Source: an uncultured Candidatus Saccharibacteria bacterium (GTDB taxonomy: Bacteria > Patescibacteriota > Minisyncoccia > Phycocordibacterales > EsbW-18). Taken from it: DNA of 64,000 nucleotides. The translations under genes were made by a program, and so were the position numbers. The notes beneath the pieces are model-generated. The model searched no databases. It was given only the letters and a program-made list of their open reading frames with translations, and was not told the DNA's origin. The DNA lies in contig CAYUSN010000001.1 in NCBI GenBank assembly GCA_964447415.1, forward strand, positions 185,727 to 249,726. The letters run 5' to 3'. Positions 5,526 to 59,562 of this stretch are shown piece after piece; positions within the stretch are counted from its first letter, which is position 1; each line of letters starts with the position of its first letter.

Positions 5526-5789
5526 ATGGCTCTCGGTGCCAAATCGGACCGTCGTGGCCTTCACCTTGTGAAGGCCGGCAGTTTCCTGCTCCAAAACCCG
5601 TTGTCGCCGGATGCCCAGAAGGTTCGAAGGGCACTCAACCGGTTCGGCGTTACCACGGAGGACATGCGCCAAGCATATCTCGTTCTTCTCGAACTGGATT
5701 GCCTGCCGGACGGATCGGCGGAACGGTTCCTTTTCGGAGGTCTTCGCGAACTCGAAGAGAGAGCCGGTGGCCACATCGTGGAGCTCTGA
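5526..5789 (+). CDS. Hypothetical protein (GC-rich ORFan)
   Basis: 87-aa ORF with GAGGTGA SD; high GC3 codon usage distinct from flanking genes; preferred over overlapping Arg/Ser-rich 5486..5809 frame. Confidence 0.35.
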   Translation: MALGAKSDRRGLHLVKAGSFLLQNPLSPDAQKVRRALNRFGVTTEDMRQAYLVLLELDCLPDGSAERFLFGGLRELEERAGGHIVEL

Positions 5790-5842
5790 GGAGCTCCGAC
5801 ACGCAGTAAAGCAGGCGATTCCATCGCCTGCTGCATCATTTC

Positions 5843-6157
5843 ATGACCACCCCTAAAAAATTTCAACGCACAAAGGAGGACTTCACCTGCGGAGAGTGCG
5901 GTTTTTTTGTACACGGAAACGGATACACCAACCACTGCCCGAAATGTCTCTGGAGCAAACATGTGGACGTGCGTCCCGGTGATCGGCGTGCAACATGCCA
6001 CGGACTTATGGAACCCGTCAGTGTGGAACTCCGCGGAGGAGACCATGTGATTGTACACCGATGTGTCCGCTGCGGTTTTGAAAAACGAAACAAGACGGAA
6101 AAGGGTGATGATTTCAACGTCATCGTGCAGCTTTCAAGCAACCCGACAAAACACTAA
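5843..6157 (+). CDS. RNHCP-domain zinc-ribbon protein
   Basis: CGECG...NHCPKC...CVRCG Cys clusters matching the RNHCP domain signature. Confidence 0.6.
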   Translation: MTTPKKFQRTKEDFTCGECGFFVHGNGYTNHCPKCLWSKHVDVRPGDRRATCHGLMEPVSVELRGGDHVIVHRCVRCGFEKRNKTEKGDDFNVIVQLSSNPTKH

Positions 6158-6159
6158 TA

Positions 6160-7347
6160 CTAGTGTGCCTCCGCTTGTATGATGCGGTCCAGTGCTACAA
6201 GCGCGGAGATGTTGTGCTGTACGTAGTCAATGCGGATGTCGTACTCATCAAGACTTTCGTGAAATCCGCCGAAGCCCGCGCGCGCGGCGTTTAGCTCACG
6301 GAGTTTTTGTCCGGTGAACTGCGTCTTTATTTGAAATACAGCGGCACTTTCCATGGCAAAGCGCGCGGCGGCGGCGTAGAGGTCGTCGCCGTTTCTTTTG
6401 AAAATATAATATGCGGCGCCGAGTCCTTCCGCGCGCGTGGCGGTCGGTGTGGAGCGCGGAGGATTGTAAAATCCGCCGTTCCAGTCACGTTGATCACCCG
6501 TTTTTCCCGAGTGCTGGGTCGAGAGGATAGATTCGGCGGTCCGTTTTGCGTGCGTGAAATAGAGGTCTTCCGGCTGATGCGCGTACAGTTCATTGAGTGC
6601 GTAGAGAAGCCAGTGGTCGTGGATGAGATCTTTCGTCGGCACGTCTTTGTCGCGCACTTCAATGAGCCAATGTGCGCCGAGATGCGCCGCGTCAATCCAC
6701 TGTTCGTCGCCGTCCACCGCATAGAGGCGCGCAAGCGCGAACAGCGCCTCGCCCGGATAGTATTCCGATTCAAAATCGGTGCGCGCGCCGGTGTCCGCGG
6801 TGATTTTATGCACCGAAAACTCGCCGTTGTGTGTTTGTACGTTCGTCAGGAATGTCGCAAGTTTTTGTGCAAGCGATACGTACTCCGATGCGGCATCCGG
6901 CGCGCCGAGAGCGCGCATCAGCGCGGCGTACTTGGAGAGCGCAAGCACCGCAAGCGCATTACCGCCGAGTTTTATTTCATTGTCTTCTTCAACGCACAGC
7001 GCGTCGGACATGCCGGGACACTCAACCACATGGTCGGTGAGAAATACCAACGCGCGCTCCGCCGCCCGCAGATACTTTTGTTTACCGGTCGCTTCGTAGA
7101 GTTCAAGAAGCGCGTAGGTCGTGCCCGCGTGACGAAGGATGTTGTATGAAGAGGAAGTTTTTCCGGTGACGGGATTGTACTGATACACAAACGAACCGTC
7201 AGTATTCGTGTGGCGTACGAGATAGTCGCCACCGAGTTGTGCTGATCTCAAGTAGGTACTCTCACGCGCGGAAAACCACCACACACCTGCAGAAAGCAGG
7301 AGAACGCCGACAACAATCAGTGCTATACCACGCTGTTTTTTCATCAT
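6160..7347 (-). CDS. Membrane-anchored prenyltransferase/squalene-cyclase-like alpha/alpha-toroid repeat protein
   Basis: N-terminal TM anchor (IALIVVGVLLLSAGVWWF); repeated TDGSF / HNGEF / GDQRDWNGGF motifs typical of terpene cyclase/prenyltransferase repeats; start moved to MMKKQ so as not to overlap the adjacent tRNA. Confidence 0.55.
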   Translation of the reverse strand: MMKKQRGIALIVVGVLLLSAGVWWFSARESTYLRSAQLGGDYLVRHTNTDGSFVYQYNPVTGKTSSSYNILRHAGTTYALLELYEATGKQKYLRAAERALVFLTDHVVECPGMSDALCVEEDNEIKLGGNALAVLALSKYAALMRALGAPDAASEYVSLAQKLATFLTNVQTHNGEFSVHKITADTGARTDFESEYYPGEALFALARLYAVDGDEQWIDAAHLGAHWLIEVRDKDVPTKDLIHDHWLLYALNELYAHQPEDLYFTHAKRTAESILSTQHSGKTGDQRDWNGGFYNPPRSTPTATRAEGLGAAYYIFKRNGDDLYAAAARFAMESAAVFQIKTQFTGQKLRELNAARAGFGGFHESLDEYDIRIDYVQHNISALVALDRIIQAEAH

Positions 7348-7352
7348 ATATG

Positions 7353-7424
7353 TGGGCATGCTAGGATTCGAACCTAGAACCGGCCGTGTATAAGACGGCT
7401 GCTCTACCGTTGAGCTACATGCCC
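7353..7424 (-). tRNA. tRNA with anticodon UAU (AUA-decoding isoleucine-type tRNA)
   Basis: Manual fold of reverse strand: acceptor GGGCATG/CATGCCC, D-arm GCTC-AACGGTA-GAGC, anticodon stem GCCGT/ACGGC with loop CTTATAC (U33-UAU-A37), T-arm CTAGG-TTCGAAT-CCTAG, discriminator A; CCA not encoded. Confidence 0.65.
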
Positions 7425-7480
7425 GAAGATACCTACGTCATTGTGATATCGCCGGCACTTAATTGCAACTTGAGAGGCGC

Positions 7481-8290: not shown

Positions 8291-9653
8291 CGAACGCACC
8301 ACAGCAGAAAACAGTCTCGAAAAAATCTCCGTAGAACGTCTCTCCGGAGAAGAGCGGGAGCACCTGTGGAGCTCCGTTACAACGGCGCACGCGCGTACCC
8401 CGCGCGTCATCCCATCCCCGTACAGCGGATGGATTATCAGCAGAGTTACTCATTCATATTCTATGATTACAGCAGCAATTGCACTTATGCTCGCGCTTTC
8501 AGCGGGAGCAACCGTAGTCGCCGCGGACGATTCCCGTCCCGGTGACGCATTATTCGCTATCGACCGCGCAACGGAAAATATTCGTATTGTGTTTGCGGGC
8601 GACGACAAAAAAGATGAACTCCGTGTCCGTTTTGCAGAAGAACGGGCGGCGGAAGTTGAATCCATTATTGATGAAGAAGGGGAGCGCGTGCGGCTCTCCA
8701 TGGAGGTTCGGGCAAAATCCTCCGGTGATGCTGCGCCCGAAGCGGCGCTGATGGCGGTTTCCTCAGATGACAGCGATGATACATCTGGCGACAATGATGA
8801 TCGCGACGACTCAGATGACGATGGCGATTCAGATGATGACGGCAACGAGCGCATTGCAAACGGTCTCTCGGTTGCAATCGGCTATCTCACGGAAGTATCA
8901 GCGGAGCTTGAAGCAAAAGGAAACATACAGGCAAAAGAGTCGGTTGACGCGGTTATTGCGCGCCTGAACTCAAAAATCGGTGAGATACCGGAAGAACTCC
9001 GTGTTCGTCTGCGGCTCGACAACGACGGTGATGACGACAAGATTCGTGTTCGCGTACGCACCGAAGGAGAAGGTGATGATGACGACGACGTCGAGGTTCG
9101 CGGAGACGGCGTACGGACGAAGGTGGAGTTCAGGAACGGTGAAATCAGAATTGAAAGCAGGATGGATGACGATTCAGACGATGACTCAGATGATGACGAT
9201 TCCTCAAGTGCCGAACTTGAAATTGAAGCGGACGTGTTCACCGACAAGACAATCGTCAAAGTTGAACGCAACGGTATTAAAGAACTCTTTACCACGACGG
9301 CAAAAACTCGCGCAGAGGTTGTGGCGGCAATTGCCGTGAAGTTCGGTATGACCGAAGCAGAAGTTGATGCGGTGCTTGATTTTGAAATTGAAAATCGCGC
9401 AAGTGTCCAAAATGATCTGTTCTTCTCCGGTTCAAGCGAAAGCGGTTCCGACGACAACAATACCGATGATTCTGAGGGAAGCAAGAGCGGCTCGGGGAGC
9501 GGACTTGGAGGCGGTCTTCTCGGAGGATTGCTCGGTGATGATTCAGATGACGATTCGGATGACGATGACGACTCAGATGATGATTCCGACGATGATGATG
9601 ACGATGATGACGATTTGGATGACGACGATGATGATGAAGAAGACGACGACTAA
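8283..9653 (+). CDS. Anti-sigma-factor-like single-pass membrane protein with extremely acidic poly-Asp/Ser extracytoplasmic domain
   Basis: Translationally coupled to the ECF sigma gene (ATGCGTAA overlap). Charged N-terminus, TM helix ITAAIALMLALSAGATVVAA, then repeated DDSDDD tracts and C-terminal run DDDSDDDDDDDDDLDDDDDDEEDDD. Confidence 0.5.
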   Translation: MRNERTTAENSLEKISVERLSGEEREHLWSSVTTAHARTPRVIPSPYSGWIISRVTHSYSMITAAIALMLALSAGATVVAADDSRPGDALFAIDRATENIRIVFAGDDKKDELRVRFAEERAAEVESIIDEEGERVRLSMEVRAKSSGDAAPEAALMAVSSDDSDDTSGDNDDRDDSDDDGDSDDDGNERIANGLSVAIGYLTEVSAELEAKGNIQAKESVDAVIARLNSKIGEIPEELRVRLRLDNDGDDDKIRVRVRTEGEGDDDDDVEVRGDGVRTKVEFRNGEIRIESRMDDDSDDDSDDDDSSSAELEIEADVFTDKTIVKVERNGIKELFTTTAKTRAEVVAAIAVKFGMTEAEVDAVLDFEIENRASVQNDLFFSGSSESGSDDNNTDDSEGSKSGSGSGLGGGLLGGLLGDDSDDDSDDDDDSDDDSDDDDDDDDDLDDDDDDEEDDD

Positions 9654-9667: not shown

Positions 9668-9709
9668 AAAAACCCTCTCTAGTTCGCGCGAATTAGAGAG
9701 GGTTTTTAT
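9668..9709. terminator. Bidirectional intrinsic terminator (aaaccctctctagttcgcgcgaattagagagggttttt)
   Basis: 11-bp stem between convergent genes with flanking A/T runs. Confidence 0.65.
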
Positions 9710-9781
9710 GTTAAAAGTAAAAACAAAACCGCGTCTACCCATGCGGGCGGACGCGGCGGTGGAAAAAGCCGGGGGTTCAGC

Positions 9782-10270
9782 TTAGCAGGGAAGCGGCGCC
9801 GTGGATGCGGCCGCTCGCTCCTTCGCGCGGCGAATCTGACGCAGCGCGTCCACGTCTTCCTGTACGACGGAATTGCAGAGCCGTCGCACGAAAGACCGCA
9901 CGTCGTCCTCCGGGATGTCGCTGCCGGCGACGTCGCCGACGAAGAGGTCCTCGAGCTCCCCGATGGAAAGCTTGTCGCGGGTACGGTGGCGCACGCGCGC
10001 ACAGAGCACCTGCAGCGAGATCTCCTCCTGCGACTTCTGTGGGATGCGGGACAGCATCCGCGTACGCTGGTCTTCTTCGGGTTCGAGAATTGCCGCGAGG
10101 AACTGCTCGACGGGCTCGGTAACGAGCCCCATCCGCGCCATGAGGCGCCAGATGGCTTCCCGAAACGCGGGCGACGTGCGGGTGAGCCCGCAGCGGTCAC
10201 ACTGGTCGACCTTCCCGGCAACGATTGCCGAGAAAATCTGCAACGCCATGGCGCCGTCCTTTTTGGTCAT
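9782..10270 (-). CDS. Hypothetical protein (GC-rich ORFan, 162 aa)
   Basis: Start moved to MTKKDG with AAAGGAGGGG SD; high GC3 codon usage; downstream of recG on same strand. Confidence 0.4.
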   Translation of the reverse strand: MTKKDGAMALQIFSAIVAGKVDQCDRCGLTRTSPAFREAIWRLMARMGLVTEPVEQFLAAILEPEEDQRTRMLSRIPQKSQEEISLQVLCARVRHRTRDKLSIGELEDLFVGDVAGSDIPEDDVRSFVRRLCNSVVQEDVDALRQIRRAKERAAASTAPLPC

Positions 10271-10371
10271 CGTATCCCCTCCTTTGAATGCGGCAGTTAC
10301 CATAACTGTCGCGGTGCATCTATTCGGTACGGTACGCTGTTGGTTAAAAAAAGTCAAAGTTTTCCCAATCT

Positions 10372-12570
10372 TTATTCAAAGTGAACTGATGCACGCGAAC
10401 GCACCGCTTCCGCAAGGAGCGGTGTGTTTGTCAATTCAGGGTCTTTCTCGATGAGTGTTCGTGCTTCAGTGCGCGCCGCTTCAACCATTTTGAGATTTTT
10501 GAGCGCTTCCATGCCGACGTCGGTGATGCCCCACTGACGTCCGCCGTACAACTCGCCTGAACCGCGCAGTTCCAAATCTTTTTCTGCGAGTTCAAACCCG
10601 TTTGCCGACGCGGCAAGCGCCTTCAGACGGTCAAGTGTTCCTGCACCGTGTGCTTCGGTGAAGAGGTAGCAGTATGCCTGATGACTTGAGCGCAGGACGC
10701 GGCCGCGGAGCTGGTGGAGCTGGGCGAGTCCGAACCGGTCGGCGCCTTCAATAATGATTGCGGTTGCGTTCGGGACATTCACGCCGACTTCAATCACCGA
10801 TGTGGCGACCAAAATATCAATATCTCCGTCAGCAAACACTTTCATCACGTCTTCTTTTTCGGCAGGTTTCATTTTTCCGTGCACCATGCCGATGCGTGCT
10901 TTAGGAAACACGTCTTTTTTGAGACGCCGCGCTTCTTCCACCACTGATTTCGCGCGCAAGGCGGTTTCTTTTTTCGGGTCCGGCTCATCAATGCGCGGAC
11001 ATACCACAAATACCTGCCGTCCTTCGTCTATGAGTGTCTGGATGTGTGCGTATGTTTTTGCGCGCCCTGATGGGGTAACAATCTCCGTTTTAATTTCTTT
11101 GCGTCCCTTCGGCTGTTCGTCCAACAACGTGAGGTCAAGGTCGCCGTACACGGTGAGCGCGAGCGTTCTCGGGATAGGTGTTGCGGTCATGGAGAGCAAG
11201 TGAGGCATACGCCAAGTGCTGGTGTCGGGTACGTCCGTTTTTTTTGCGAGTCCGGCGCGCTGATTGGTGCCGAAGCGATGTTGTTCATCGATAATCACGT
11301 ATGCGAGGTGTTTGAATTTCACGGTTTTCTGGATGAGCGCGTGTGTGCCGATGAGAATCGGAATCTCTCCGTTTGCAACCCATTTAAGCAACTGTGGGCG
11401 GGAAATATCGGTCCATCCGTTGCGGTTTACTTTTGACGGAAACTTTTTGCATCCCGATGAGGTGATGAGACCGATTTGAATCGGTAAATCTTTAAAGAAT
11501 TCTATGAATGACTCAAAGTGTTGCTGTGCAAGAATCTCGGTGGGTGCCATGTACGCAACCTGCAAATTGCCGAAATCCTGTGTTTTTCCCTCTGCATTTT
11601 TCGGACGGCTCGTCACCACACAATATGCAGTTGCTGCGGCGACGAATGTCTTTCCCGAACCGACGTCTCCTTCAAGGAGGCGCGACATCGCATGCGGCGA
11701 AGCAAAGTTTTCAAGAATATGTTCTATAGCGCGTGTTTGCGCACCGGTCGGTGTAAACGGAAAGCGTTTAATAAAGGCAGAGAGCTCTTTTTTTGATACC
11801 GCGATATCCCATGTCGGCAGGGCATCGGCCTCCGCGCGCTCCTGCTGTTTTTGAAGCTGGATGAAAAATACCTCTTCAAATGCGAACCGTTTGCGTGCGG
11901 CGACCGCATCCGTTTCGGTTTTCGGTGTGTGCATCCACACCAGTGCGGTGGCGAGTGCAGGTAAATTGTATTTTTTCAAGATGTCTTTCGGAATCGGATC
12001 GGAGAGTGTTTCCAGTAATTCTTTCGTGAGTATTTTTTGTATTGCATAGAAAAACCAGCGTGAGGTCACCCCGCGGCTTTCATGGTATACGGGCAGAAAC
12101 GGTAAGTCAGGATATTCTTCCGTTTGTGAAGTAAACAGCGGGCTTCCTGCGAGCGCCTTGTTTCTGTCAGCGTGCGTAATCTCAGGGTTAATCATTGAAC
12201 GCTTGCCGTCTTTTTCTTTTATTTTTCCGGCGACCACAACCAGCGACCCCTCAGGAAACATTTTTGAAATGTAGGGCTGGTGGAGCCACAAGAGATGCAA
12301 ACTGCCTGACTCGTCTTTGAGTGTCGCTTCCGTCATCGGGATTTTACTTTTCCACGCCTTACGCGCCTTTGTTTTTGAAATAACACCGACGACGGACACC
12401 ATGTCTCCGGATGCGGCGGTTTGAATCACGCCCTCATTGGAAGATGAGATGTAACGTGCGGGGAAGTGATAGAGTAAATCACGTAACGTGACCACGCCGA
12501 GTTTCTTGAGCGCTTTTACTTGAAAGTCGGAAAGGCGAAAGCGTTTTGTAACGGGCTGACTGAGTTCCAT
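10372..12570 (-). CDS. recG: ATP-dependent DNA helicase RecG
   Basis: Wedge/OB N-domain followed by superfamily-2 helicase motifs (GDVGSGKT, DEQHRFG, TATPIPRT, helicase C-terminal QLHQLRGRV); start moved to MELSQPV by codon counting. Confidence 0.85.
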   Translation of the reverse strand: MELSQPVTKRFRLSDFQVKALKKLGVVTLRDLLYHFPARYISSSNEGVIQTAASGDMVSVVGVISKTKARKAWKSKIPMTEATLKDESGSLHLLWLHQPYISKMFPEGSLVVVAGKIKEKDGKRSMINPEITHADRNKALAGSPLFTSQTEEYPDLPFLPVYHESRGVTSRWFFYAIQKILTKELLETLSDPIPKDILKKYNLPALATALVWMHTPKTETDAVAARKRFAFEEVFFIQLQKQQERAEADALPTWDIAVSKKELSAFIKRFPFTPTGAQTRAIEHILENFASPHAMSRLLEGDVGSGKTFVAAATAYCVVTSRPKNAEGKTQDFGNLQVAYMAPTEILAQQHFESFIEFFKDLPIQIGLITSSGCKKFPSKVNRNGWTDISRPQLLKWVANGEIPILIGTHALIQKTVKFKHLAYVIIDEQHRFGTNQRAGLAKKTDVPDTSTWRMPHLLSMTATPIPRTLALTVYGDLDLTLLDEQPKGRKEIKTEIVTPSGRAKTYAHIQTLIDEGRQVFVVCPRIDEPDPKKETALRAKSVVEEARRLKKDVFPKARIGMVHGKMKPAEKEDVMKVFADGDIDILVATSVIEVGVNVPNATAIIIEGADRFGLAQLHQLRGRVLRSSHQAYCYLFTEAHGAGTLDRLKALAASANGFELAEKDLELRGSGELYGGRQWGITDVGMEALKNLKMVEAARTEARTLIEKDPELTNTPLLAEAVRSRASVHFE

Positions 12571-12672
12571 ACGTCCATTGTACCTCAGGGGTGTGAAGTA
12601 TTTCTTGTTTGACGAACCGTTTATCAGAGCGTACCCTCGTTTTTGGAGATGTACCTGACAAGGAGGATTCTT

Positions 12673-12780
12673 ATGCAACAACTGCTTCAGGCAAGTGCTG
12701 TGTTCGGCATCATTGCGCTCATCATCTGGGGGATGTGGAGGGTCACATTCCTCGGTTTCCGAGAAGGAGGACAACGATGA
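12673..12780 (+). CDS. Putative 35-aa membrane peptide (MQQLLQASAVFGIIALIIWGMWRVTFLGFREGGQR)
   Basis: Manual translation; AAGGAGGA SD 7 nt upstream; stop overlaps downstream ATG (ATGA); GC-rich codon usage. Confidence 0.3.
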   Translation: MQQLLQASAVFGIIALIIWGMWRVTFLGFREGGQR

Positions 12781-13007
12781 GGGTTTATGAAGAGAAGGGG
12801 GTGCGTCTCACGTACGTGCCGATGGCGGTCGCGGCAGCGACGCTCATCGCCGCCGGATGGGTCGGATTTCTCGTGCTGCGTAAGACGAGATTCCGCCGTG
12901 CCGCCCGCGTCGCACGGAAAGTGGAGGTCGCGGGCCAGAGAGTGCTCAACCTCGCGGAGCACCCTGATGTGCGGCCGATGTTCTCCGAGGACGAGACCGC
13001 CGCGTGA
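12777..13007 (+). CDS. Small single-TM protein (76 aa), hypothetical
   Basis: AGGAGGA SD; start MRVYEEKG within ORF 12609..13007; TM segment AVAAATLIAAGWVGFLVL; coupled to upstream micro-ORF. Confidence 0.35.
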   Translation: MRVYEEKGVRLTYVPMAVAAATLIAAGWVGFLVLRKTRFRRAARVARKVEVAGQRVLNLAEHPDVRPMFSEDETAA

Positions 13008-13236
13008 CGCCTCGCTCCGCCGTTTTCCCGCCGGGGGCCTTGTGCCGCCGGCGGTGCTTTATATATTGGCGTTTTTGCTGTCCACCGACTTTCCCCAACG
13101 GCGCAGAAACGGCTTGACAGAGGCGTTTTCACGAATATAATGAGTGCTCCTACAGTGATCAGCAACCCCGTTCCGGTTTTGCTGGGACGGGGTAAAAAAT
13201 TGCGGTAGGGGATGCACGTTGATAATCACATAATTC

Positions 13237-13331: not shown

Positions 13332-13543
13332 AAAAAAGTCGTGCGATGGCCACCGCTGTCGCACGCACAATCAGAGTTAACCGGATAGCAGCCGGAGCAC
13401 TCTGATTAACCCGTCTATGAGAGACAGACCGTAGTACAGTCTGTCTCATCCAAGACAAAATTAAGAACGGAGAAAAAAGCTAATCACATTTTTTCTTTTG
13501 TTCTGCTCAACTAAGTGAAGCATTTATGTTTCACTTTATATGT

Positions 13544-15196
<1,653 letters not shown>

Positions 15197-15365
15197 AGTC
15201 AAATGACAATCGGTATTTGTCTCTCAAGGACAATACTCTAGGCGGTCGATATCGTGCACTGCAATTGAGTGCATGATGGATGCGGCACAGCATCCTTAAA
15301 ACCGTGCCGGGCATCCGGGAAAGACCGGAAAAATGAGCAGAACAAAAGAAAGAACGTGATATAAA

Positions 15366-15406: not shown

Positions 15407-16573
15407 TTAGAGTTCGTCGAGCGCGTCTTCGGCAAGTTCCTCCGCCTCTTGTGCCAGGTCAATCGCTTCGTCGTAATCTTCATCGTCGAACGCATCCCAC
15501 GCGTCGGCAACCAAGTCCTCCGCCTCATCAAGCAGGTCTTCAGCGTCGGATGTGTCGCCGTTTGTGTCATCAACCTCATCCCAGGCATCATCAATTGCGT
15601 CTTCCGCGTCGGCAATTGCGTCTTCCGCGTCTCCCTCATCCCCCCTTCGGTGGCTTCTCGGATTTATTTCATCAACGGCCTCGTCCGCGAGATCCTGTGC
15701 TTCTTCCGCAAGATCAATCGCATCGTCATAGTTGCCGTCATCAAACTCATCCCATGCTTCATCAAGCAGATCTTGTGCTTCATCAAGTAGATCCTGTGCG
15801 TCATCAACATCATCACCGTCATCTTCCGCGTCGTCTATTTCATCTTGCGCATCATCAATCGCATCTTCTGCTTCGTCCAGCGCATCCTCTGCCTCTTCAT
15901 CGCCACCGCCGAGATCATCGATAATATCCTGTGCGTCATCAAGCGCACGCTCTCCCTTTTTGAGTGCCTCTTCGTAATCCTCTTCGATAAACGCGTACAG
16001 AGCGTCGAGCAGACGTTCTTTGGCGTCATCAAGGTCATTCTCAAAGCTTGAGGTGGTTTCACCGTTGTCTTGTGCGTCTTCTATCTCGTCCTCCGCATCA
16101 TCGATTGCATTAATTGCATCTTGCAGAATATTCCGTGCGTCCTCTTCATCGGATGAGTTATTGTCATCATCGTCATCATCACTGTCATCATCATCAGAAT
16201 CCGTCTGCGGCGGAGCAATTACCGGTGTAGGCGCCGCGCCGCTCATGAGTTCAAGATATTTTCTCTGTGATACGGGTCCGAAATATCCTGTCGCCGGCAT
16301 AATGCCGTTCACGGTCTGCCATGCCGCAACCGCAATTTGTGTTTTTTCACGGAAGAGCGATGTTTCTTGCCCCGGCGCGCCGGGACCATCCTGTGCAATC
16401 GTGATGCCCGCTGAGTTGAGGTACCTCTGCAGACAACGGATGTCTTCTCCTTGCATGCCGAGCTCCAAGTCGCGGTCAAAGGTGCACGAAACGACCGCCT
16501 GTGCAGACGGAGCAAATGACAAAAACGCTGCAGTGATAATACCCGCTAGCAATAGTGTTGTGTGTGTGCGCAT
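15407..16573 (-). CDS. Secreted peptidoglycan-binding-domain protein with long acidic Asp/Glu/Ala repeat C-terminal region
   Basis: Signal peptide MRTHTTLLLAGIITAAFLSFAPSAQA; PG_binding_1-like segment (LELGMQGEDIRCLQRYLNSAG...TGYFGPVSQRKYLEL); ~250 aa of repeats such as DDAQDLLDEAEDLVADAWDEFDD; start moved to MRTHTT. Confidence 0.6.
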   Translation of the reverse strand: MRTHTTLLLAGIITAAFLSFAPSAQAVVSCTFDRDLELGMQGEDIRCLQRYLNSAGITIAQDGPGAPGQETSLFREKTQIAVAAWQTVNGIMPATGYFGPVSQRKYLELMSGAAPTPVIAPPQTDSDDDDSDDDDDDNNSSDEEDARNILQDAINAIDDAEDEIEDAQDNGETTSSFENDLDDAKERLLDALYAFIEEDYEEALKKGERALDDAQDIIDDLGGGDEEAEDALDEAEDAIDDAQDEIDDAEDDGDDVDDAQDLLDEAQDLLDEAWDEFDDGNYDDAIDLAEEAQDLADEAVDEINPRSHRRGDEGDAEDAIADAEDAIDDAWDEVDDTNGDTSDAEDLLDEAEDLVADAWDAFDDEDYDEAIDLAQEAEELAEDALDEL

Positions 16574-16772
16574 AGCAAAAAAGTTATGTGGTAAATGACC
16601 TGATTGTTCCTGCACAAAGAGGAATGTAATCGGTGCTTACAGTATATCAAGTGGCTCGTCATGCTGAGGTGCCGGGCGGGGGATAATGAGCGCCCGCAAA
16701 GGTATTGGAAACCACATTCTTGACAAATTCATATAATATGATGTATACTGTACATCAGAAAAGGAGGTTGCC

Positions 16773-17024
16773 ATGAAGGCCACGGTGTCGAACTATGGTC
16801 TGATGTACAGTCCGACGGTGATGGGTGGGCTCGTCTCACTCGAACCGTTCGAGGTCATCGCCAAGGCGGTCGGACCGTGCAACTGCGGGTTCGAGGAACC
16901 CGACAGTCCGCGGATGGGGCACGCATCAAGCTGTCCAACGCAGTACGCGATGATCGAGGTGCAGGGGCACACGATCGTGGTGTACCTGCCCAACATCGAA
17001 ATCATGGAGGAGGTGACCGCATGA
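16773..17024 (+). CDS. Hypothetical small protein (83 aa, Cys/His-containing), GC-rich ORFan
   Basis: Strong AAAAGGAGG SD; stop overlaps downstream ATG (ATGA). Confidence 0.4.
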   Translation: MKATVSNYGLMYSPTVMGGLVSLEPFEVIAKAVGPCNCGFEEPDSPRMGHASSCPTQYAMIEVQGHTIVVYLPNIEIMEEVTA

Positions 17025-17272
17025 CTCGACAGTACTACCGCCCGCAGGAGCTGCCGCGGCAGAAGGTCGTGCAGCGCGAGAGGAACCAGATGAACACGGC
17101 TTCGGTGGTGTGCGCGGTTCTTGCACTCATCTTCACGATGGGCGCGGCGTCCGAATACACCACCACCGTCGCGGCGGTCGCTTGCGTTCTCCTGGCCCTG
17201 GTCTTCGGGGTCGGGGCGTGGCTTCTCTCCACCCGTTGCGGATTTCGCATCCGCATCGAGCGCGACCGCTGA
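17021..17272 (+). CDS. Small 2-TM membrane protein (83 aa), hypothetical
   Basis: Start at ATG overlapping upstream stop; two hydrophobic helices (VVCAVLALIFTMGAA, VACVLLALVFGVGAWLL). Confidence 0.4.
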   Translation: MTRQYYRPQELPRQKVVQRERNQMNTASVVCAVLALIFTMGAASEYTTTVAAVACVLLALVFGVGAWLLSTRCGFRIRIERDR

Positions 17273-17381
17273 CAGTGCTTCGCCGGTTCAAGCCCGGCAA
17301 CGACAGTCGTTTCCTTCGGGGGGCGGCTGTTTTTCTTTATTGAGAAAAACCGGCAATTTTGGTATAGTCCACGTTGCAAAC

Positions 17382-17479: not shown

Positions 17480-17510
17480 AACGGGCGACCTTTTGAGGGG
17501 TCGCCCGTGA
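17480..17510. terminator. Bidirectional intrinsic terminator (aaaacgggcgaccttttgaggggtcgcccgtgaaa)
   Basis: 8-bp GC stem with flanking A/T runs between tRNA-Ile and convergent gene. Confidence 0.6.
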
Positions 17511-17530
17511 AATCAACTGCGATTCACTGC

Positions 17531-18790
17531 TTACGGAGCCGTTGCGCTCCAGATGCCGGTGTCTCCGAGTTCGAAGCCGTCGGCGAAGATGCGTCCGATG
17601 CCGTGGATGTACCCGGCACCTGCATCGACCCCGTCGATATCCGAGTAAGGGGCGCCGCCGGCGAAGTTGCCACCGTAGGCTGCCGACGACCAACCGTTGC
17701 GGTAGTCGGTGTCAACGTCGGCAGGAATGATTTCCTGCGCGAACGACCACGGGTTCGTGGCTTCCTGCAGGAAAAGCATCCATCTGCCGGCGTTGTTCGT
17801 GCCGGGGATGTCGCGCCACGCCTCACCAACGAGTGCCTGGTGGGCATTGAGCGCGACGGACCATCCAAACTGCGCCCCTGCCTGCGGCACGGGTGCGGCG
17901 AGTGCTTGTTCCAGCGTCCAGCCGTTGCCATCCTGATGGATGACAACGCTGTAGGCGGCACCTCGACTGTCGTCGGGTTGCAATCCGGATTCTCCCGGGG
18001 CGCCGAGCAGGACACGTCGTCCGCTCGCGGAGACAGCGAAGCCGAGTTTGTAGGCGCCGTTGATGACGCCTTTGAAGCTCTGCCCCCACTGGTTCGTTCC
18101 TCCCAAGTTCTGCTTGAAGAGGAAGAACGAACCCATCCATGAGATGTTGCCGCTGTAGTCCAACGGAGCAGTGGCGACGAGCCACTGGTTTCCGATGAAC
18201 GCGAGACCGAAGCCCGCATACGAATCGGCCGGGTTAGCGATGTTGAGGAAGGTAAGCTTCTTACCTTCCCAGCCGCCGGCGGTGTCCCAGTAAACGTTCA
18301 CCTTCCCGTGCGGGAAGGCGCCACAGGCGGCGCTGGTGCCGCTCTTGGAGACCGCGACCGACTGGCCGCTTTCGTCACCTGCGACGGCGTGCGCATCTTC
18401 CAGTGCGGCATCGAAGGTGTAGTCTCCGTCGCTGCCGTTGAAGACGTAGCACCGGCCGGCGTTCGCGCCGAGCGTGTCGTCGTAGGGCGCGCCCACGATG
18501 AGGCGCGCGCAATCCGGAGACACGGCGAGCGCTTCGCCGAAGCGAGCACCGCCTTGGGCACCCGGATAGAAGACCTCGTCGATGAGGTCCGTGCCACGGT
18601 ATACCGCGACGGAACCGGAGGCGGCGTCGTACGGACGACCGACGAAGGACAGACCGTCGCACTTCGCGACGGACTTCCCGAAGTTCTCGCCCGGGAAGGG
18701 CGAGGGGTGCGGGAGCGCGGTGGGTTCCACCGCGCTCAGGGGCGCCGCGAGAATCGCGAGCGCCATGAAGGTCCAGCGGGCGATTCTCAT
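17531..18790 (-). CDS. Secreted FG-GAP repeat (integrin-alpha-like beta-propeller) protein
   Basis: Signal peptide MRIARWTFMALAILAAPLSA; repeated FG...SVA...G...D(L)IVGAP...G motifs (ENFGKSVA, ARFGEALAVSPDCARLIVGAPYDD, AQFGWSVAL...LVGEAWRD); start moved to MRIARW; high GC3. Confidence 0.6.
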   Translation of the reverse strand: MRIARWTFMALAILAAPLSAVEPTALPHPSPFPGENFGKSVAKCDGLSFVGRPYDAASGSVAVYRGTDLIDEVFYPGAQGGARFGEALAVSPDCARLIVGAPYDDTLGANAGRCYVFNGSDGDYTFDAALEDAHAVAGDESGQSVAVSKSGTSAACGAFPHGKVNVYWDTAGGWEGKKLTFLNIANPADSYAGFGLAFIGNQWLVATAPLDYSGNISWMGSFFLFKQNLGGTNQWGQSFKGVINGAYKLGFAVSASGRRVLLGAPGESGLQPDDSRGAAYSVVIHQDGNGWTLEQALAAPVPQAGAQFGWSVALNAHQALVGEAWRDIPGTNNAGRWMLFLQEATNPWSFAQEIIPADVDTDYRNGWSSAAYGGNFAGGAPYSDIDGVDAGAGYIHGIGRIFADGFELGDTGIWSATAP

Positions 18791-18965
18791 GGCGACTAAC
18801 TTCCTTTCTCCGTCTATCGACGGTGCCTGCATGAATCGTTATGAATCGTTGTTGATTGTAAATCTGCGTCTGGTAACATCCTATCAGAATAAACATGAAT
18901 TGTCAAGAGTTCTGAGCGGGAAAAAGGTACGTTTTTTAGGGCATATTTGGTACTATGCTCTTGTC

Positions 18966-20176: not shown

Positions 20177-20279
20177 AATGCCAAGGAGTTGACAAACCAT
20201 TTTAAACTGATATAATACCCACCAGGAAATAGCGCATCGGTCGGATTCAACCGCCGATGAACAAGAGAGGGAGGTCAGT

Positions 20280-20657
20280 ATGACCGTCAAAAAGCAGGCT
20301 CCCGAAGAGACCCCCGCCACGCCCCAGACGGCGCCCGACGACAACAAGCGTTTCGAGATGTGCGGGTGCAACGGCAAGCCGCACGGGTACTACGTGCGGA
20401 GCAACGGGGAGAAGTTCCCGGCCGTCATCGTGTCGGTGCGCGCCGGCAAGTTCGTCCTCGACGGACCGGTCGAGGAGGGCGGCGGGCTCGTCAAGACCGA
20501 GGACAAGGCGCGCGCAGTCGCCCAGATGGAGGCCTCCGGTCTCCCGGCAGAGCGCGAGGACGACATCGAGGTGGCCGCGCAGAGCGCCGTCCATGCGCTG
20601 GCCTCCGAGGTGTTCCTGCTGGAGATCCTGGCGCAGGCGATGACCCGCAACAAGTAG
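20280..20657 (+). CDS. Hypothetical protein (GC-rich ORFan, 125 aa)
   Basis: GAGGGAGG SD; very high GC3 (aag/gag/gac/ggc codons); followed by intrinsic terminator ~20686-20720. Confidence 0.4.
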   Translation: MTVKKQAPEETPATPQTAPDDNKRFEMCGCNGKPHGYYVRSNGEKFPAVIVSVRAGKFVLDGPVEEGGGLVKTEDKARAVAQMEASGLPAEREDDIEVAAQSAVHALASEVFLLEILAQAMTRNK

Positions 20658-20755
20658 AACGCGCCGATAGACGTCCATCTGTCACCAAGCCCCCACGCGA
20701 AAGCGCGGGGGCTTCAATATTATATGGAAACAAAAAACACACGGAGTTGTCGTGA

Positions 20756-20802
20756 TATAACCCGCACTTACTTTTGGTACAAAAGTAAGTGCGGGTTATA
20801 GT
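20756..20802 (+). promoter_or_regulatory. Palindromic element F (tataacccgcacttactttt-ggtac-aaaagtaagtgcgggttata) embedded in sigma70-like promoter: -35 TTGGTA, 17-nt spacer = 3' arm, -10 TATAGT
   Basis: Perfect 20-bp inverted repeat; -10 ends ~9 nt before the murC ATG, implying a (near-)leaderless transcript. Confidence 0.5.
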
Positions 20803-22097: not shown

Positions 22098-22187
22098 ACG
22101 TATTGCAGGAAATACTTGACACCTCCTATTTTTTGGAGTATTTTCCTGACAGAGCTTGGTCTTCAAACAACGAAACGGAGGCAACAA

Positions 22188-56192: not shown

Positions 56193-56391
56193 TACACGGG
56201 TGTTAGCACGTGGGGTCTGACCCAACACTATACTATTGACACATCACATAAAAAGGTGTATTATATGCATGAAAGTTCTTTGAAAGTTCAGTTGCAAATT
56301 TGACCGTGGTTTTGAGCGCCTTTCAGGCCTTCAAAACCACGGTCAACGAAGACCGATGGTTACTCCGGGCAACAAAGCCCAAGGAGGTAAC

Positions 56392-57006
56392 ATGAGTTTC
56401 TCATTTCTGCTTTTCCTGTTTCTGATCCTGTTGTTGGTGGGAGTGGTCGGGACGACTTTCCTCATTTATTGTGGGGGGTCCAGCGAGCAATCCAAACAGC
56501 AGGATGAGACCTTCAAGGAGTTCACGGTGTCCAATGCCGCCACAACCAAGGAGGACTTCTTCGTCGCGTTCCCCTCGTTGAGAAGGTATCGGCACAAACC
56601 AGAATACGACAACCTAGAATTTTATCTCTGCGATTTATCGAAAGTGAGTCCCTTTATCAGTTTTAATGGAATTTCTCCCAGAGATGCTAAGGGGTTGGTT
56701 GAGCAGAAGGGATTCAGGAACGCAACACCAGAAGAATTCGTCTACTATGTCAAGAAACAAGCCCTTCTTGGGGAGAAGGGGGAGAGCTTCGGTTCTAGCG
56801 TGGTTGCGTTGGGGAAGTATGCCAATCGCACTACGGACTACCACGACACGGGGATTCTCATCTACAGCTGCTTCTATCCAGGAAGATGCTTTATCCAGAA
56901 CTGGGGCTGTAGCATGAATTTCATCCTTTACGGAGGTTTTTCCGTAGACAACACCTTTTTTCTTGGTGTGCGGGAAAAGAAGTCTAAGGAGGAATCATGT
57001 TCCTGA
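56392..57006 (+). CDS. Membrane-anchored hypothetical protein (GC-rich ORFan)
   Basis: AAGGAGG SD; N-terminal TM FLLFLFLILLLVGVVGTTFLIY; start at M13 of ORF 56356..57006. Confidence 0.4.
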   Translation: MSFSFLLFLFLILLLVGVVGTTFLIYCGGSSEQSKQQDETFKEFTVSNAATTKEDFFVAFPSLRRYRHKPEYDNLEFYLCDLSKVSPFISFNGISPRDAKGLVEQKGFRNATPEEFVYYVKKQALLGEKGESFGSSVVALGKYANRTTDYHDTGILIYSCFYPGRCFIQNWGCSMNFILYGGFSVDNTFFLGVREKKSKEESCS

Positions 57007-57563
57007 TCAAGGACGTTCCCGTCGGTCGCCTCAACGCGCTGGTCAAGAAGATCGGCGGGTTGCAGGTGATGGATGGCATTCTCGACGGCACGCTGAAGCT
57101 CACCGTCGAAAAGATCGTCGAGCCCACACCAGCCGACCTCGCTGTTTTCTTCACTACTCGGCCTGGCCTCTTGGTCACCGACGGGTTCTGGCAGCAGATT
57201 CTTGCTCTGGCGCTTGCGATGCCCGAGACGGCACCGGCCTCAGTCGGAGAGCCGTACGACCTTCGGAAGGACATGTACGATACCGAGATTCGTCAGAAAC
57301 TCGGTGAGAACCACATCTTCGAGAATGCCCGCGCGTTTTGTCGCTACCTCCAGAGGGCTCTCTCCGCGCAGTTGGGAGGTACCGAGGGGGACCTGCGCAC
57401 CTTTGGCCACGAGAACATCTTCTATGTTCGTGGCGGGGACGGGGCTGTCTTCGTGGTCTCCGTCAAGTGGAATGCCAATGGCCGAAATTGGTCCATCAGC
57501 GCCGATCATCTGCTCGACGCTGACCGGTGGTACCACGGTACTCGGGCTTTCCCTCGCAACTGA
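56997..57563 (+). CDS. Hypothetical protein (GC-rich ORFan, 188 aa)
   Basis: AAGGAGGA SD; overlaps upstream stop; high GC3; followed by terminator (ccccgcgtggcttttattggcacgcgggggcgtttt, ~57620-57655). Confidence 0.4.
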   Translation: MFLIKDVPVGRLNALVKKIGGLQVMDGILDGTLKLTVEKIVEPTPADLAVFFTTRPGLLVTDGFWQQILALALAMPETAPASVGEPYDLRKDMYDTEIRQKLGENHIFENARAFCRYLQRALSAQLGGTEGDLRTFGHENIFYVRGGDGAVFVVSVKWNANGRNWSISADHLLDADRWYHGTRAFPRN

Positions 57564-57734
57564 TCCTTGAACCCCTGGCATCTTGGCGCTTGCGTCTTGA
57601 TACCTTGGAAATCTTTCGCCCCCGCGTGGCTTTTATTGGCACGCGGGGGCGTTTTCGTATCTGACTTTAAATACAATTCAAAAATAAAGGTTCGACAGGT
57701 ATAATGATTTTGGAGGCTCATCCTTCAAAAATAT

Positions 57735-57785
57735 CATGACATCCTACATACCGACAATTGGACTTGAAATTTTCACCCAGCACTA
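57735..57785 (+). pseudogene. Relic/duplicate of the gatB N-terminus (MTSYIPTIGLEIFTQH*), divergent at synonymous sites from the functional start 90 nt downstream
   Basis: Manual translation: MTSYIPTIGLEI vs functional MTEYKPTIGLEI; nucleotide identity low despite peptide conservation; terminates inside hairpin E. Confidence 0.3.
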
Positions 57786-57804
57786 AAGCGAAGCTTAGTG
57801 CTGG
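57775..57804. promoter_or_regulatory. Palindromic element E (cccagcactaaagc-gaa-gcttagtgctggg) 23 nt upstream of gatB
   Basis: Inverted repeat with CCAGCAC core read directly. Confidence 0.45.
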
Positions 57805-57826
57805 GCAGGCGCAGTAAACCATCATC

Positions 57827-59227
57827 ATGACAGAATATAAACCTACAATAGGGCTCGAGATACACGCGGAGTTGAAAACGCAGACGAAAATGTTCTGCGA
57901 CTCTAAGAATGACCCGGACGAGAAGCGTCCGAACTGGAACGTGTGTCCGGTGTGCATGGCGCACCCCGGCACGCTCCCCGTCATCAACCGCGAGGCGGTG
58001 AAGCACGTGCTCAAAGTCGGCGTTGCCGTCGGCGGTACCATTGCCGACTACACGGAATTTGACCGAAAAAACTATTTTTACCCCGACATTCCAAAAGGGT
58101 ACCAAATCAGTCAGTATGCCTTTCCGCTTGTAACAAAAGGAGAGCTACACGGTATTGCACTTACACGCATTCATCTTGAGGAAGATACCGCGCGCTCTCA
58201 GCACGAGGGTGACCACTCGCTCGTTGATTTTAACCGTGCAGGCGTGCCGCTGATGGAATTGGTTACCGAACCGGTTATCAAGAGTGCAAAAGAGGCGGGG
58301 GATTTCGCACGTGAGCTGCAACTTTTATTGCGGTATCTCGGCGTGTCGGATGCGGACATGGAGAAAGGACATTTGCGCGTGGAGGTGAATATCTCTGTTT
58401 CAAAAGACGGCACACTTGGAACAAAGACGGAAATAAAAAATATCAACTCGTTCCGTGCGGCGGAAAAGGCGATTGAATTTGAAACACAACGGCAGACGGA
58501 GGCGCTTGAAGCGGGAGAGAAAATAGTGCAGGAGACACGCGGATGGGATGATGCGAAAGGAGAAACGTTTTCTCAGCGCGAGAAAGAATCGTCGCACGAT
58601 TACCGTTATTTTCCGGAACCCGATTTACCGAAGCTAAAAATCTCAGAGATTCCGGAATTTTCCGCCGAGGCGCTTAAAAAAGAATTACCGGAACTGCCGT
58701 GGCAGAAACGGGAACGGTATCTTGCACTCGGACTGAAAAAAGAGGACGCGAATATGTTTGTGGGCGACCCCGCATACGGAAACTTTTTTGAACAGGTTGC
58801 GGGAGAGTTGGGCGGTGACCCGAAAAAGATTCTCCTTGCGACTAATTATATTGCAGCTGACCTCGCGGGACTTTTGAAAGGAAACGAGATTTCGTTGTCC
58901 GCGAAATATTTTGCCGAACTCATCGGAATGCTTTCAGACGGTAGCGTATCTTCGCGCGGAGGAAAAGATATTCTTGCACTCATGATTAAAAAAGATGCCT
59001 CCCCGAAAAAGATTGCGGAGAAAGAGGGGTTGTTGCAGCAAAGTGACGAAGGTGCCATCGGTACAATTGTTGATGATGTCATCGCGCAAAACGAGAGTGT
59101 AGTTGCAGAATATAAAAAAGGAAAAGAAGCATCACTGCAGTTTCTTGTGGGGCAGGGCATGAAGCTTTCGAAAGGTTCGGCAAATCCGGGGGTGCTTGCA
59201 AAACTCCTCAAAGAAAAACTTTCATAA
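57827..59227 (+). CDS. gatB: Aspartyl/glutamyl-tRNA(Asn/Gln) amidotransferase subunit B
   Basis: N-terminal PTIGLEIHAELKT, GatB catalytic domain and C-terminal GatB/YqeY domain; terminator (cgccgccaaaagtcttggcggcggttt) follows. Confidence 0.9.
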   Translation: MTEYKPTIGLEIHAELKTQTKMFCDSKNDPDEKRPNWNVCPVCMAHPGTLPVINREAVKHVLKVGVAVGGTIADYTEFDRKNYFYPDIPKGYQISQYAFPLVTKGELHGIALTRIHLEEDTARSQHEGDHSLVDFNRAGVPLMELVTEPVIKSAKEAGDFARELQLLLRYLGVSDADMEKGHLRVEVNISVSKDGTLGTKTEIKNINSFRAAEKAIEFETQRQTEALEAGEKIVQETRGWDDAKGETFSQREKESSHDYRYFPEPDLPKLKISEIPEFSAEALKKELPELPWQKRERYLALGLKKEDANMFVGDPAYGNFFEQVAGELGGDPKKILLATNYIAADLAGLLKGNEISLSAKYFAELIGMLSDGSVSSRGGKDILALMIKKDASPKKIAEKEGLLQQSDEGAIGTIVDDVIAQNESVVAEYKKGKEASLQFLVGQGMKLSKGSANPGVLAKLLKEKLS

Positions 59228-59280
59228 AAACGAACGCCGCCAAAAGTCTTGGCGGCGGTTTCACGCACGGTGCGTGACGG

Positions 59281-59562
59281 TCAGGAGAGGCCGATGACCT
59301 CGTCGGGAATTCCCGAGTTCTTGGCAAACCATGCCGTGAACTCGAAAAAGAGCTCGTCGCTCCGGTCACCCAACAGCACGGAATCGCCGTCCAGCGGCAA
59401 CTCCACCGTCTCCGGCGGCAGACCGTTCTCCCTCACGATGGCCTCGTGTACCTTCTGGGCCATCTTGTTGAACTCGGCCTCGAACTCGGGGTTGACCCCG
59501 AAGAGGCCCATGTCCAGGCGCTTCTCGTAGAGGAACCGCCGGACTTCTCTTAACGTTGTCAT
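59281..59562 (-). CDS. Hypothetical protein (93 aa, GC-rich ORFan)
   Basis: Start moved to MTTLREV within ORF 59281..59619; high GC3. Confidence 0.35.
   Translation of the reverse strand: MTTLREVRRFLYEKRLDMGLFGVNPEFEAEFNKMAQKVHEAIVRENGLPPETVELPLDGDSVLLGDRSDELFFEFTAWFAKNSGIPDEVIGLS

Follow-up and report, generated by a model that had tools for sequence, protein, structure and literature searches.

We analysed a 64,000-nt stretch of DNA (the window) from an assembly deposited as an uncultured Candidatus Saccharibacteria bacterium (GCA_964447415.1, contig CAYUSN010000001.1, positions 185,727 to 249,726), which sits on a 306.5-kb NCBI contig. A MurC scan with one genome per species placed the window within Candidatus Paceibacterota/Parcubacteria, that is, in the candidate phyla radiation (CPR). 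Pfam identified a housekeeping set comprising SmpB, FtsH, RecG, Alr, MurC, RsmI, MurB, SecA, Obg, GatB, GAPDH and RpiB, together with a glycan locus at ~30-48 kb and a VirD4/TraG-like coupling protein. Rfam and ARAGORN located a 16S rRNA gene at 13537-15204, which at 1668 nt carries insertions (the model has 1533 nt), a transfer-messenger RNA (tmRNA) gene, and genes for tRNA-Ile(UAU), tRNA-Ile(GAU) and tRNA-Leu(CAG); within the window they found no 23S gene downstream of the 16S. Scattered among these genes are islets of small genes that combine a high GC content at third codon positions (GC3) with Shine-Dalgarno (SD) motifs, next to a 16S gene that lacks the anti-SD. On balance, we lean towards the view that these islets make up a conserved, turnover-prone accessory expression class, the signals of which would be maintained by selection.

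The class, as we define it, consists of about 18 small genes in roughly 13 units, A to M, each of one or two open reading frames (ORFs). An earlier reading of the DNA, made from the sequence alone (the original prediction), had listed intervals holding such genes, and the 15 genes inside them do belong to the class. The list itself needed amending. Three members, 488-1330 and 1440-1655 on the minus strand (unit A) and 2800-3060 on the plus strand (unit B), had been missed; 9782-10270, 17531-18790 and 59281-59562 are on the minus strand; 12673-13007 is a 35-amino-acid (aa) plus a 76-aa ORF; and there are two ORFs in 16773-17272, four in 25297-26668 and two in 56392-57563. The units and their parts are as follows, with TM standing for transmembrane segment.

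436-1667, minus strand: unit A, a 71-aa ORF and an FA_hydroxylase-like ORF.
1440-1655, minus strand: unit A, 71-aa ORF; SD ACGGAGG at 1653-1667; GC3 0.64; terminator 1410-1437.
488-1330, minus strand: unit A, 280-aa FA_hydroxylase-like membrane protein; SD AAGGGAGG; GC3 0.80; terminator 436-472.
2740-3108, plus strand: unit B; promoter TTGACT-17-TAGAGT at 2740-2768; SD AGGAGG; terminator 3079-3108.
2800-3060, plus strand: unit B, 86-aa ORF with three TM; GC3 0.79.
5458-5789, plus strand: unit C; promoter 5458-5486; SD GAGGTGA; 87-aa ORF at 5526-5789; GC3 0.64.
9729-10308, minus strand: unit D; 162-aa ORF at 9782-10270; GC3 0.82; SD AAGGAGG; terminator 9729-9754.
12659-13057, plus strand: unit E, just upstream of the 16S promoter; terminator 13042-13057.
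12673-12780, plus strand: unit E, first ORF, 35 aa; SD AAGGAGG; ATGA-coupled to the second ORF.
12777-13007, plus strand: unit E, second ORF, 76 aa with one TM; SD AAGGAGG; GC3 0.78.
16720-17331, plus strand: unit F; promoter TTGACA-18-TATACT at 16720-16749; terminator 17302-17331.
16773-17024, plus strand: unit F, first ORF, 83 aa; SD AAGGAGGT; GC3 0.81; ATGA-coupled to the second ORF.
17021-17272, plus strand: unit F, second ORF, 83 aa with two TM; SD AGGAGGTG; GC3 0.83.
17481-18906, minus strand: unit G; promoter 18878-18906; terminator 17481-17508.
17531-18790 (ORF open to 18832), minus strand: unit G, FG-GAP repeat protein with signal peptide; GC3 0.78; weak SD.
20177-20800, plus strand: unit H; perfect promoter TTGACA-16-TATAAT at 20189-20216; structured leader; terminator 20689-20712.
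20280-20657, plus strand: unit H, 125-aa ORF; SD GGGAGGT; GC3 0.93.
20746-20800: 3' flank of unit H; at 20746-20760 a displaced remnant of alr (its 3' end), then a palindrome at 20756-20800.
22098-22939, plus strand: unit I; promoter TTGACA-17-TATTTT at 22116-22144; SD CGGAGG; terminator 22886-22914.
22188-22871, plus strand: unit I, 227-aa membrane protein; GC3 0.71.
25297-25806, plus strand: unit J, two overlapping ORFs; terminator 25781-25806.
25297-25557, plus strand: unit J, first ORF (J1), 86 aa; SD GGAGG; GC3 0.78.
25533-25766, plus strand: unit J, second ORF (J2), 77 aa with two TM; SD AGGAG; GC3 0.68.
25905-26720, plus strand: unit K, two overlapping ORFs directly upstream of the VirD4/TraG-like gene; terminator 26702-26720.
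25905-26366, plus strand: unit K, first ORF (K1), 153 aa; GC3 0.69.
26360-26668, plus strand: unit K, second ORF (K2), 102 aa; SD AAGGAGGAGG; GC3 0.77.
56236-57650, plus strand: unit L; promoter TTGACA-17-TATTAT at 56236-56264; terminator 57618-57650.
56392-57006, plus strand: unit L, first ORF (L1), 204 aa, overlapping L2; SD AAGGAGGT; GC3 0.61.
56997-57563, plus strand: unit L, second ORF (L2), 188 aa; SD TAAGGAGG; GC3 0.75; member of a large family that serves as target of a diversity-generating retroelement (DGR) in L086.
59235-59619, minus strand: unit M; perfect promoter TTGACA-18-TATAAT at 59590-59619; terminator 59235-59257.
59281-59562, minus strand: unit M, 93-aa ORF; SD AGGAG; GC3 0.85.

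We modelled 66 genes by hand curation, and mean GC3 was 0.76 (0.61-0.93) for the 15 that fall within the predicted intervals versus 0.54 for the 51 others (Mann-Whitney p=1.7e-8); GC3 was therefore far from uniform, and the claim that these genes exceed their neighbours was borne out. Twelve of them lay above z=3.6 against the pooled core GC3, and only three were mildly raised, namely 5526-5789 (0.64), 56392-57006 (0.61) and 25533-25766 (0.68). GC3 also differed between genes with and without a Pfam hit (p=1e-4), a contrast that is for the most part, but not entirely, independent of the original choice of genes because 14 of the 20 genes without a hit are the claimed ones. The islets share a codon dialect in which, for the most part, C-ending codons together with AAG, GAG and CAG are favoured: AAG, TTC and ATC reached shares of 0.82, 0.79 and 0.80 in islets versus 0.27, 0.31 and 0.34 in the core, and ATA was close to zero (0.02 of isoleucine codons versus 0.16). 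The dinucleotide distance delta* was 0.114 for islets, as compared with 0.034+/-0.011 among core subsets. In 20280-20657, GC by codon position was 0.68/0.43/0.93; such a GC3 with a GC2 of 0.43 reflects coding periodicity and not mere GC-rich DNA. Islet edges were sharp, and regional GC-biased gene conversion was ruled out, as the flanking core genes show no GC3 gradient.

The same genes carry the SD motifs. A core of AAGGAGGT at least 5 nt long (mostly AAGGAGG), 3-7 nt before the start, occurred in 13/15 claimed genes versus 4/51 others. Canonical SDs in the listed genes and their lack in many core genes had both been predicted correctly, save that the SD of the FG-GAP gene is weak. Trying all candidate starts within the initial 35% of every core ORF raised the core count to only 6/51 with GGAGG or AGGAG, and two of these six turned out to be unlisted members of the islet class. 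The statement that almost all islet genes are ATGA-coupled was overdrawn, the exact overlap being present in two of five coupled pairs.

The 16S rRNA of this organism apparently offers these motifs no partner. Its tail (15191-15213) is GGATTTAGTCAAATGACAATCGG, devoid of the CCUCC anti-SD; the 3' end sequence runs ...GCTGGTCGTGGATTTAGTCAAATGACAATCGG, with nothing CCUCC-like after helix 45. A sequence scan found no CCTCC in the entire 16S gene, one such gene being visible and its mature 3' end unmapped. A hidden anti-SD was ruled out, as there was no CACCTCCT near the 16S and no CCTCC in it. CCUCC was likewise absent from the 16S of 23 related loci: two close relatives (L004 and L005, see below) have the same tail as the window, 20 other Paceibacteria loci have GGAACATATCCAAT..., and the sole CCUCC flagged among related tails was a non-conserved CCCUCC ~20 nt downstream in L005. 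In terms of SD-dependent initiation, the GGAGG-type motif 4-10 nt before the start is thus there and the complementary CCUCC in 16S is not. Published work already documents such a loss in part of the Parcubacteria (Tsurumaki et al. 2022, PMC9297842) and in tiny genomes (Nikolaeva et al., bioRxiv 10.1101/755876). The window resembles these cases in lacking CCUCC and in having a core without SD, as described or implied there; a retained class of SD-led genes is not described in the passages of these two papers that we covered. Because the 16S has no anti-SD, housekeeping genes do without SD, and it is therefore the SD-led islets, not the core, that become the anomaly.

Other features of this 16S gene can be mentioned here. 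Its 3' trailer of ~130 nt (within 15191-15360) is ~85% conserved in L004 and L005 and forms two hairpins with compensatory changes, with no conserved CCUCC (CCCUCC in L005 only). A 27-nt processing stem pairs a 3' arm at 15334-15360 with 13483-13509 upstream of the gene. The insertion at 14677-14840 measures 163 nt versus 49 nt in L004, and short TTCGGATTTCGA-like repeats lie within it at 14756-14818.

The islets also stand out by their transcription signals. Matches of 11-12/12 to TTGACA-N16-18-TATAAT were found in the window only at the rRNA (13114), the tmRNA (2054) and islets H, M, F and L, and weaker TTGAC-type promoters lie upstream of B, C, G and I, so that our scan detected promoters for units B, C, F, G, H, I, L and M. 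Terminators were detected by scan for A, B, E, F, G, I, J and M and by direct reading for D, H, K and L; the strongest intrinsic terminators of the window sit after A, B, F, G, I, J and M. Islet matches to promoter and terminator models are thus the best in the window, level with the rRNA and tmRNA genes. The original prediction had offered a distinct expression class as an alternative to import, and this proved the better-supported half, SD motifs coming together with the best sigma-70 promoters and terminators.

Three units have additional signals nearby. The 5' untranslated region (UTR) of unit D contains a 15-nt palindrome, CAGTTATGGTAACTG, at 10294-10308 on the minus strand, which has the appearance of an operator or of a hairpin in the RNA; it recurs identically upstream of 6001 in the relative L091 (38% GC), though the rest of the UTR is unalignable. 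The promoter spacer of unit I contains CACCTCCT (22116-22127), and directly after the stop of this unit comes CCTCCGTT (22869-22881), the exact complement of the SD region of the same unit, AACGGAGG. Such 5'-3' pairing may mask the SD, or the complementarity may be due to chance. Larger palindromes occur beside units H and D. One, at 20756-20800, is perfect with 21-nt arms and breaks the old alr-murC junction; the other, at 9668-9707, is near-perfect with 20-nt arms (95% complementary) and lies between convergent genes. They are unrelated in sequence.

We then compared the window with related loci, labelled L001-L100. Four independent Logan assemblies cover the window, three of them (L001-L003) 100% identical and L085 with the same gene order. 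This agreement settled the concern about a chimeric contig, and because the same architecture also recurs in relatives, the islets are not an assembly artefact. By MurC identity, the close relatives are L004 (78%), L005 (74%) and L015 (91%, a short contig); L004 and L091 represent one relative of 38-41% GC. Base composition differs greatly among near relatives that share gene order and 70-78% core protein identity: L004 has a core GC3 of 0.27, L005 one of 0.47 and the window one of 0.54.

Core genes were collinear with those of relatives, and islets occupied variable slots. The alr-murC slot measures 620 nt in the window and 24 nt in L004 and L015, and holds an unrelated low-GC3 gene in L084. 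Likewise, the murC-rsmI slot is reduced to 8 nt in L005, and in L084 contains an unrelated GC3-rich, SD-led cassette on the opposite strand. Unit F is missing at the syntenic position in L004. Unit H left an insertion scar: the ancestral end of alr (GTCGTGATATAG in relatives) survives as the displaced relic at 20746-20760, and the working alr end at 20159-20176 is spelled in GC-richer synonymous codons. The H family itself is found downstream of alr in the window and in L094 and upstream of alr in L005. A synteny comparison had been proposed as a check, and it thus identified variable slots with insertions at H, I and F. These three units are patchy, as compared with J, K and D, which are conserved among relatives: unit J has orthologues with 59-65% identity in L084, SD-led too, and the unit K slot has SD-led orthologues in L084, L004 and L005. 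The unit C slot of L091 contains an SD-led ORF of 66 aa. Gain, loss and replacement of cassettes thus take place at the slots, and a cassette that is in place is inherited vertically.

Islet orthologues diverged in step with the core. Between the window and L084, core identity was 83-90% and that of the orthologues of G, J1, J2, K1 and K2 was 29-65%; synonymous divergence (dS) was 0.8-1.3 for islets and 0.7-2.2 for the core, and the ratio of nonsynonymous to synonymous divergence (dN/dS) 0.29-0.39 and 0.06-0.08, respectively. Islet proteins evolve 4-6 times faster than the core, yet under purifying selection. In the L004/L091 genome, with a core GC3 of 0.23-0.32 (L004 0.27), the unit D orthologue (63% identity) has a GC3 of 0.66 and AAGGAGG beside core genes at 0.23-0.30, and ORFs in the J/K slots have a GC3 of 0.42-0.65 and AGGAGG. 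Across seven related loci, GC3 exceeded that of the core by >0.1 in 15/20 SD-led genes versus 6/65 others (Fisher p=3e-8), a test that is partly circular because the small ORFs of L004 and L005 were picked by an SD scan. An SD-like motif with correct spacing was present at 23/23 orthologous starts, the remaining UTR being unalignable. SD motif and C/G-ending codon usage were kept in every relative examined, irrespective of its base composition. The pattern was not seen in more distant Paceibacteria loci; it is therefore apparently specific to this subclade and its Campbellbacteria-like relatives.

Homologues of the islet proteins were few. In searches of 5.8 and 1.8 billion proteins, we found only 1-6 related clusters each for D, H, I, K, L1, M and G, and the context, where fetched (D, G, H, I), was that of relatives of the same clade. 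Unit G homologues were clade-internal only (60, 57 and 43% identity), and a metagenome scan with the unit D family gave one locus. The FA_hydroxylase-like protein of unit A has relatives at ~50% identity in both Parcubacteria and GC-rich Opitutaceae, which fixes neither the direction nor the recency of a transfer. Sixteen islet proteins, used as a concatenated query, had no tblastn match in phage and plasmid collections; PHROG and PADLOC (defence and toxin-antitoxin systems) gave no islet hits. No islet match reached the curated gathering cut-off of a toxin-antitoxin or defence family in Pfam, the best being SLATT_1 and EACC1 for 17021-17272 (E at least 0.01, 7-13 bits under the cut-off). Defence or toxin-antitoxin systems were ruled out, PADLOC being empty, and the likeness to toxin-antitoxin modules is limited to the two-gene overlapping layout. 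No close relatives of H and L2 were found on viral contigs, and this, with the empty phage/plasmid tblastn and PHROG searches, led us to reject a phage or plasmid origin. At greater distance, a profile scan picked up two L2 relatives (33-34% identity) on viral contigs, one of them a genuine phage contig. On the contig L100 (IMGVR_UViG_3300020577_003325), which has NinG, ERF recombinase and DNA methylase, a 33%-identity relative of L2 lies at 3986-4468.

The L2 family counts hundreds of clusters. A comparison with the DGR variable proteins of CPR bacteria applies to this one islet gene, and the 64-kb window contains neither a template repeat (TR) nor a reverse transcriptase for it. A complete DGR with bAvd and RVT_1 occurs at 10001-12518 of L086, a Campbellbacteria metagenome-assembled genome (BTUR01000001.1). 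Its 190-aa target is 57% identical to L2, with a variable repeat (VR) at 10450-10568 and a TR at 10903-11021 (91% identity). This target is the sole gene in the 20-kb locus with a clear, well-spaced SD-like motif, and has a GC3 of 0.80 versus ~0.57.

Directly downstream of units J and K lies the VirD4/TraG-like type IV coupling protein gene (26727-28616, plus strand). It has weak Pfam hits, is ~90% conserved in L084 and follows the J/K cassettes wherever the slot was examined (L084, L004, L005); no further type IV secretion genes were visible in the window. A search of the window for an integrase, a transposase or an attC-like element was negative, and no shared flanking repeat family or target duplication was found around the islets in the window, the only scar being that at unit H.

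Taken together, the islets probably represent the flexible, fast-evolving accessory set of a Parcubacteria (Paceibacteria/Campbellbacteria-like) lineage. Each unit would be an autonomous, moron-like transcription unit, in which a near-consensus sigma-70 promoter and a canonical SD precede one or two short ORFs and an intrinsic terminator follows them, wedged into a slot between syntenic housekeeping genes. Besides small proteins, either soluble or with TM, the units are predicted to encode an FG-GAP surface protein and one protein of the DGR-target family. SD and codon usage would be held by selection, defining a separate expression class with its own transcription signals and a distinct translation control. 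That SD and GC3 persist even in a relative with a core GC3 of 0.27 argues that these features are kept by selection and are not relics of import.

Several points weigh against this view. H, I and F are clearly recent gains, and because of them import contributes. A dS of ~1 between the window and L084 would, by itself, allow partial amelioration, and the argument for equilibrium leans mainly on the distant L004/L091 genome, where J/K orthology is weak (29-31% identity). Ordinary translational selection is not obviously the force, because GAPDH (GC3 0.53) and SecA (0.57), native genes that are possibly highly expressed, do not share the codon dialect of the islets. No mechanism is known by which an SD could work without a CCUCC-bearing rRNA, and the case for selection is made from conservation. 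Lastly, the data cover 64 kb of the genome and one 16S gene, and a second rRNA copy is possible.

Of the competing accounts, repeated recent horizontal transfer is an unlikely one; its donor would be a host bacterium, a plasmid or a phage that uses SDs and has a higher GC content. The SD motifs and GC3 would then be unameliorated signatures, functionless in the recipient. Slots that are empty or otherwise filled in near relatives, the unit H scar with its GC-richer replacement of the alr end, and the foreign-looking codon and dinucleotide signatures all fit this account, as do the ~50%-identical FA_hydroxylase-like proteins in GC-rich Opitutaceae and the distant DGR-target relatives on a phage contig. 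Yet no donor was found for 16 proteins by phage/plasmid tblastn, PHROG, PADLOC or viral contigs, most families had only clade-internal homologues in the billions of proteins searched, and orthologues have co-diverged with the core, keeping SD at 23/23 starts and a GC3 excess where the core is at 0.27, whereas neutral relics should decay. Recent transfer thus explains the turnover and the foreign look, but neither the survival of SD and GC3 through long vertical descent, purifying selection and compositional drift of the whole genome nor the lack of a donor in very deep databases. The repeated acquisition put forward in the original prediction holds to that extent: discrete islets, their gain, loss and replacement and the scar at H speak for it, whereas the donor is missing and the features are maintained. 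The original source of the cassette families is possibly external, and for some of them (FA_hydroxylase-like, DGR-target) probably so.

We give still less credit to a clade-specific mobilome pool (CPR phages or plasmids, or intragenomic shuffling), whose re-seeding would keep GC3 and SD uniform. The changing side of alr on which the H family sits, the swapping of unrelated SD-led cassettes in the same slots, the VirD4/TraG-like gene conserved beside J and K and the flanking palindromes would suit such a pool. On the other hand, islet dS is close to core dS, against recent exchange, no integrase, transposase, attC-like element or shared flanking repeat was found, and the mobilome of hosts without anti-SD would still have no use for SD. 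That the islets are an artefact, either spurious ORFs in GC-rich non-coding or structured-RNA DNA or a chimeric contig, is barely credible. GC-rich DNA does contain few stops, antisense frames are open as well (e.g., 20247-20678) and most products have no Pfam hit, but codon periodicity, a dN/dS of 0.3-0.4 and the existence of orthologues pass the coding-potential check that had been called for and ruled out spurious ORFs; independent gene callers gave the same gene calls, the AlphaFold model of one islet product is confident (pLDDT, predicted local distance difference test, of 87), and the four assemblies and the relatives agree on the architecture.

A separate question is what, under the selected expression class that we prefer, would read the SD motifs. 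It is quite improbable, in our opinion, that they are functional and read by something other than the canonical 16S tail. Candidates for such a GGAGG reader are a second rRNA, another RNA bearing an anti-SD, a GGA-binding regulator or the ribosomes of another cell. One possibility is a specialised ribosome population or a CCUCC-bearing RNA in Parcubacteria without anti-SD. A more radical possibility is that the cassettes are "export-ready" genes, equipped with consensus promoter, SD, terminator and host-like G/C-ending codons for expression inside the bacterium that serves the episymbiont as host; the conserved VirD4/TraG-like coupling protein beside one cassette cluster would then be a candidate for a role in their delivery. 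Such genes would resemble those of the transferred DNA (T-DNA), which carry eukaryotic signals.

Known systems provide partial parallels. Phage morons are autonomous extra genes in lambdoid and HK97-like phage genomes. Like them, the islets are single genes or pairs with their own sigma-70 promoter and factor-independent terminator, inserted between neighbours that are adjacent in relatives, unlike the flanks in composition and variable in presence. Unlike morons, they reside in a CPR chromosome among housekeeping genes (alr, murC, rsmI, recG, 16S, gatB, GAPDH), with no phage genes or prophage around them; their SD is apparently unreadable by the host rRNA, and their odd composition is conserved among orthologues. 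With genomic islets and horizontally acquired ORFans they have in common that they are small, atypical, lineage-restricted, near tRNA or rRNA genes and polymorphic in presence, and they do show patchiness and a scar. Acquired genes in most bacteria have a higher AT content than the core and undergo amelioration over time. The islets, in contrast, are GC3-richer, kept this offset and their SD through long vertical descent with no amelioration across core GC3 values of 0.27-0.59, and came with neither an identifiable donor nor a mobility gene. Integron cassettes are usually promoterless and tandem, and end in attC sites. The islets share with these cassettes, and with clusters of attC sites lacking integron-integrases (CALINs), short, mostly ORFan genes and a high turnover; they differ in having their own promoters and terminators and in being scattered, and Pfam and repeat searches found no attC-like shared repeat at their 3' ends and no IntI.

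Loss of the anti-SD is held to abolish SD-dependent initiation. A conserved and selected SD-led gene set in genomes without anti-SD would contradict this view: there would be either an as yet unknown reader of GGAGG or a tuning of these genes' expression signals to a different translation system. The signature of SD, consensus promoter, terminator and C/G-ending codons could also serve to pick out flexible, probably host-interaction genes of uncultured CPR bacteria, which are otherwise unannotatable ORFans. Finally, with core GC3 ranging from 0.27 to 0.59 and islets above the core in each genome, these loci would offer a natural test of codon usage decoupled from mutational drift.

Some neighbouring genes also vary among relatives. 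The tRNA-Ile(UAU) gene (7352-7424, minus strand) adjoins genes for an extracytoplasmic function (ECF)-type sigma factor and a DUF5667 protein, and the L004/L091 genome lacks this three-gene block at the corresponding site. For a bacterial tRNA-Ile, the UAU anticodon is unusual, the norm being CAU plus TilS. L004 and L015 have the tRNA-Ile(GAU) gene in inverted orientation, and the PG_binding/DUF4398 gene (15407-16615) is missing at the syntenic position in L004. Asp/Glu-rich repeat runs built of GAT/GAC-rich units of 9-21 nt occur within the latter gene (15414-15942) and at the C-terminus of the DUF5667 protein (9536-9650).

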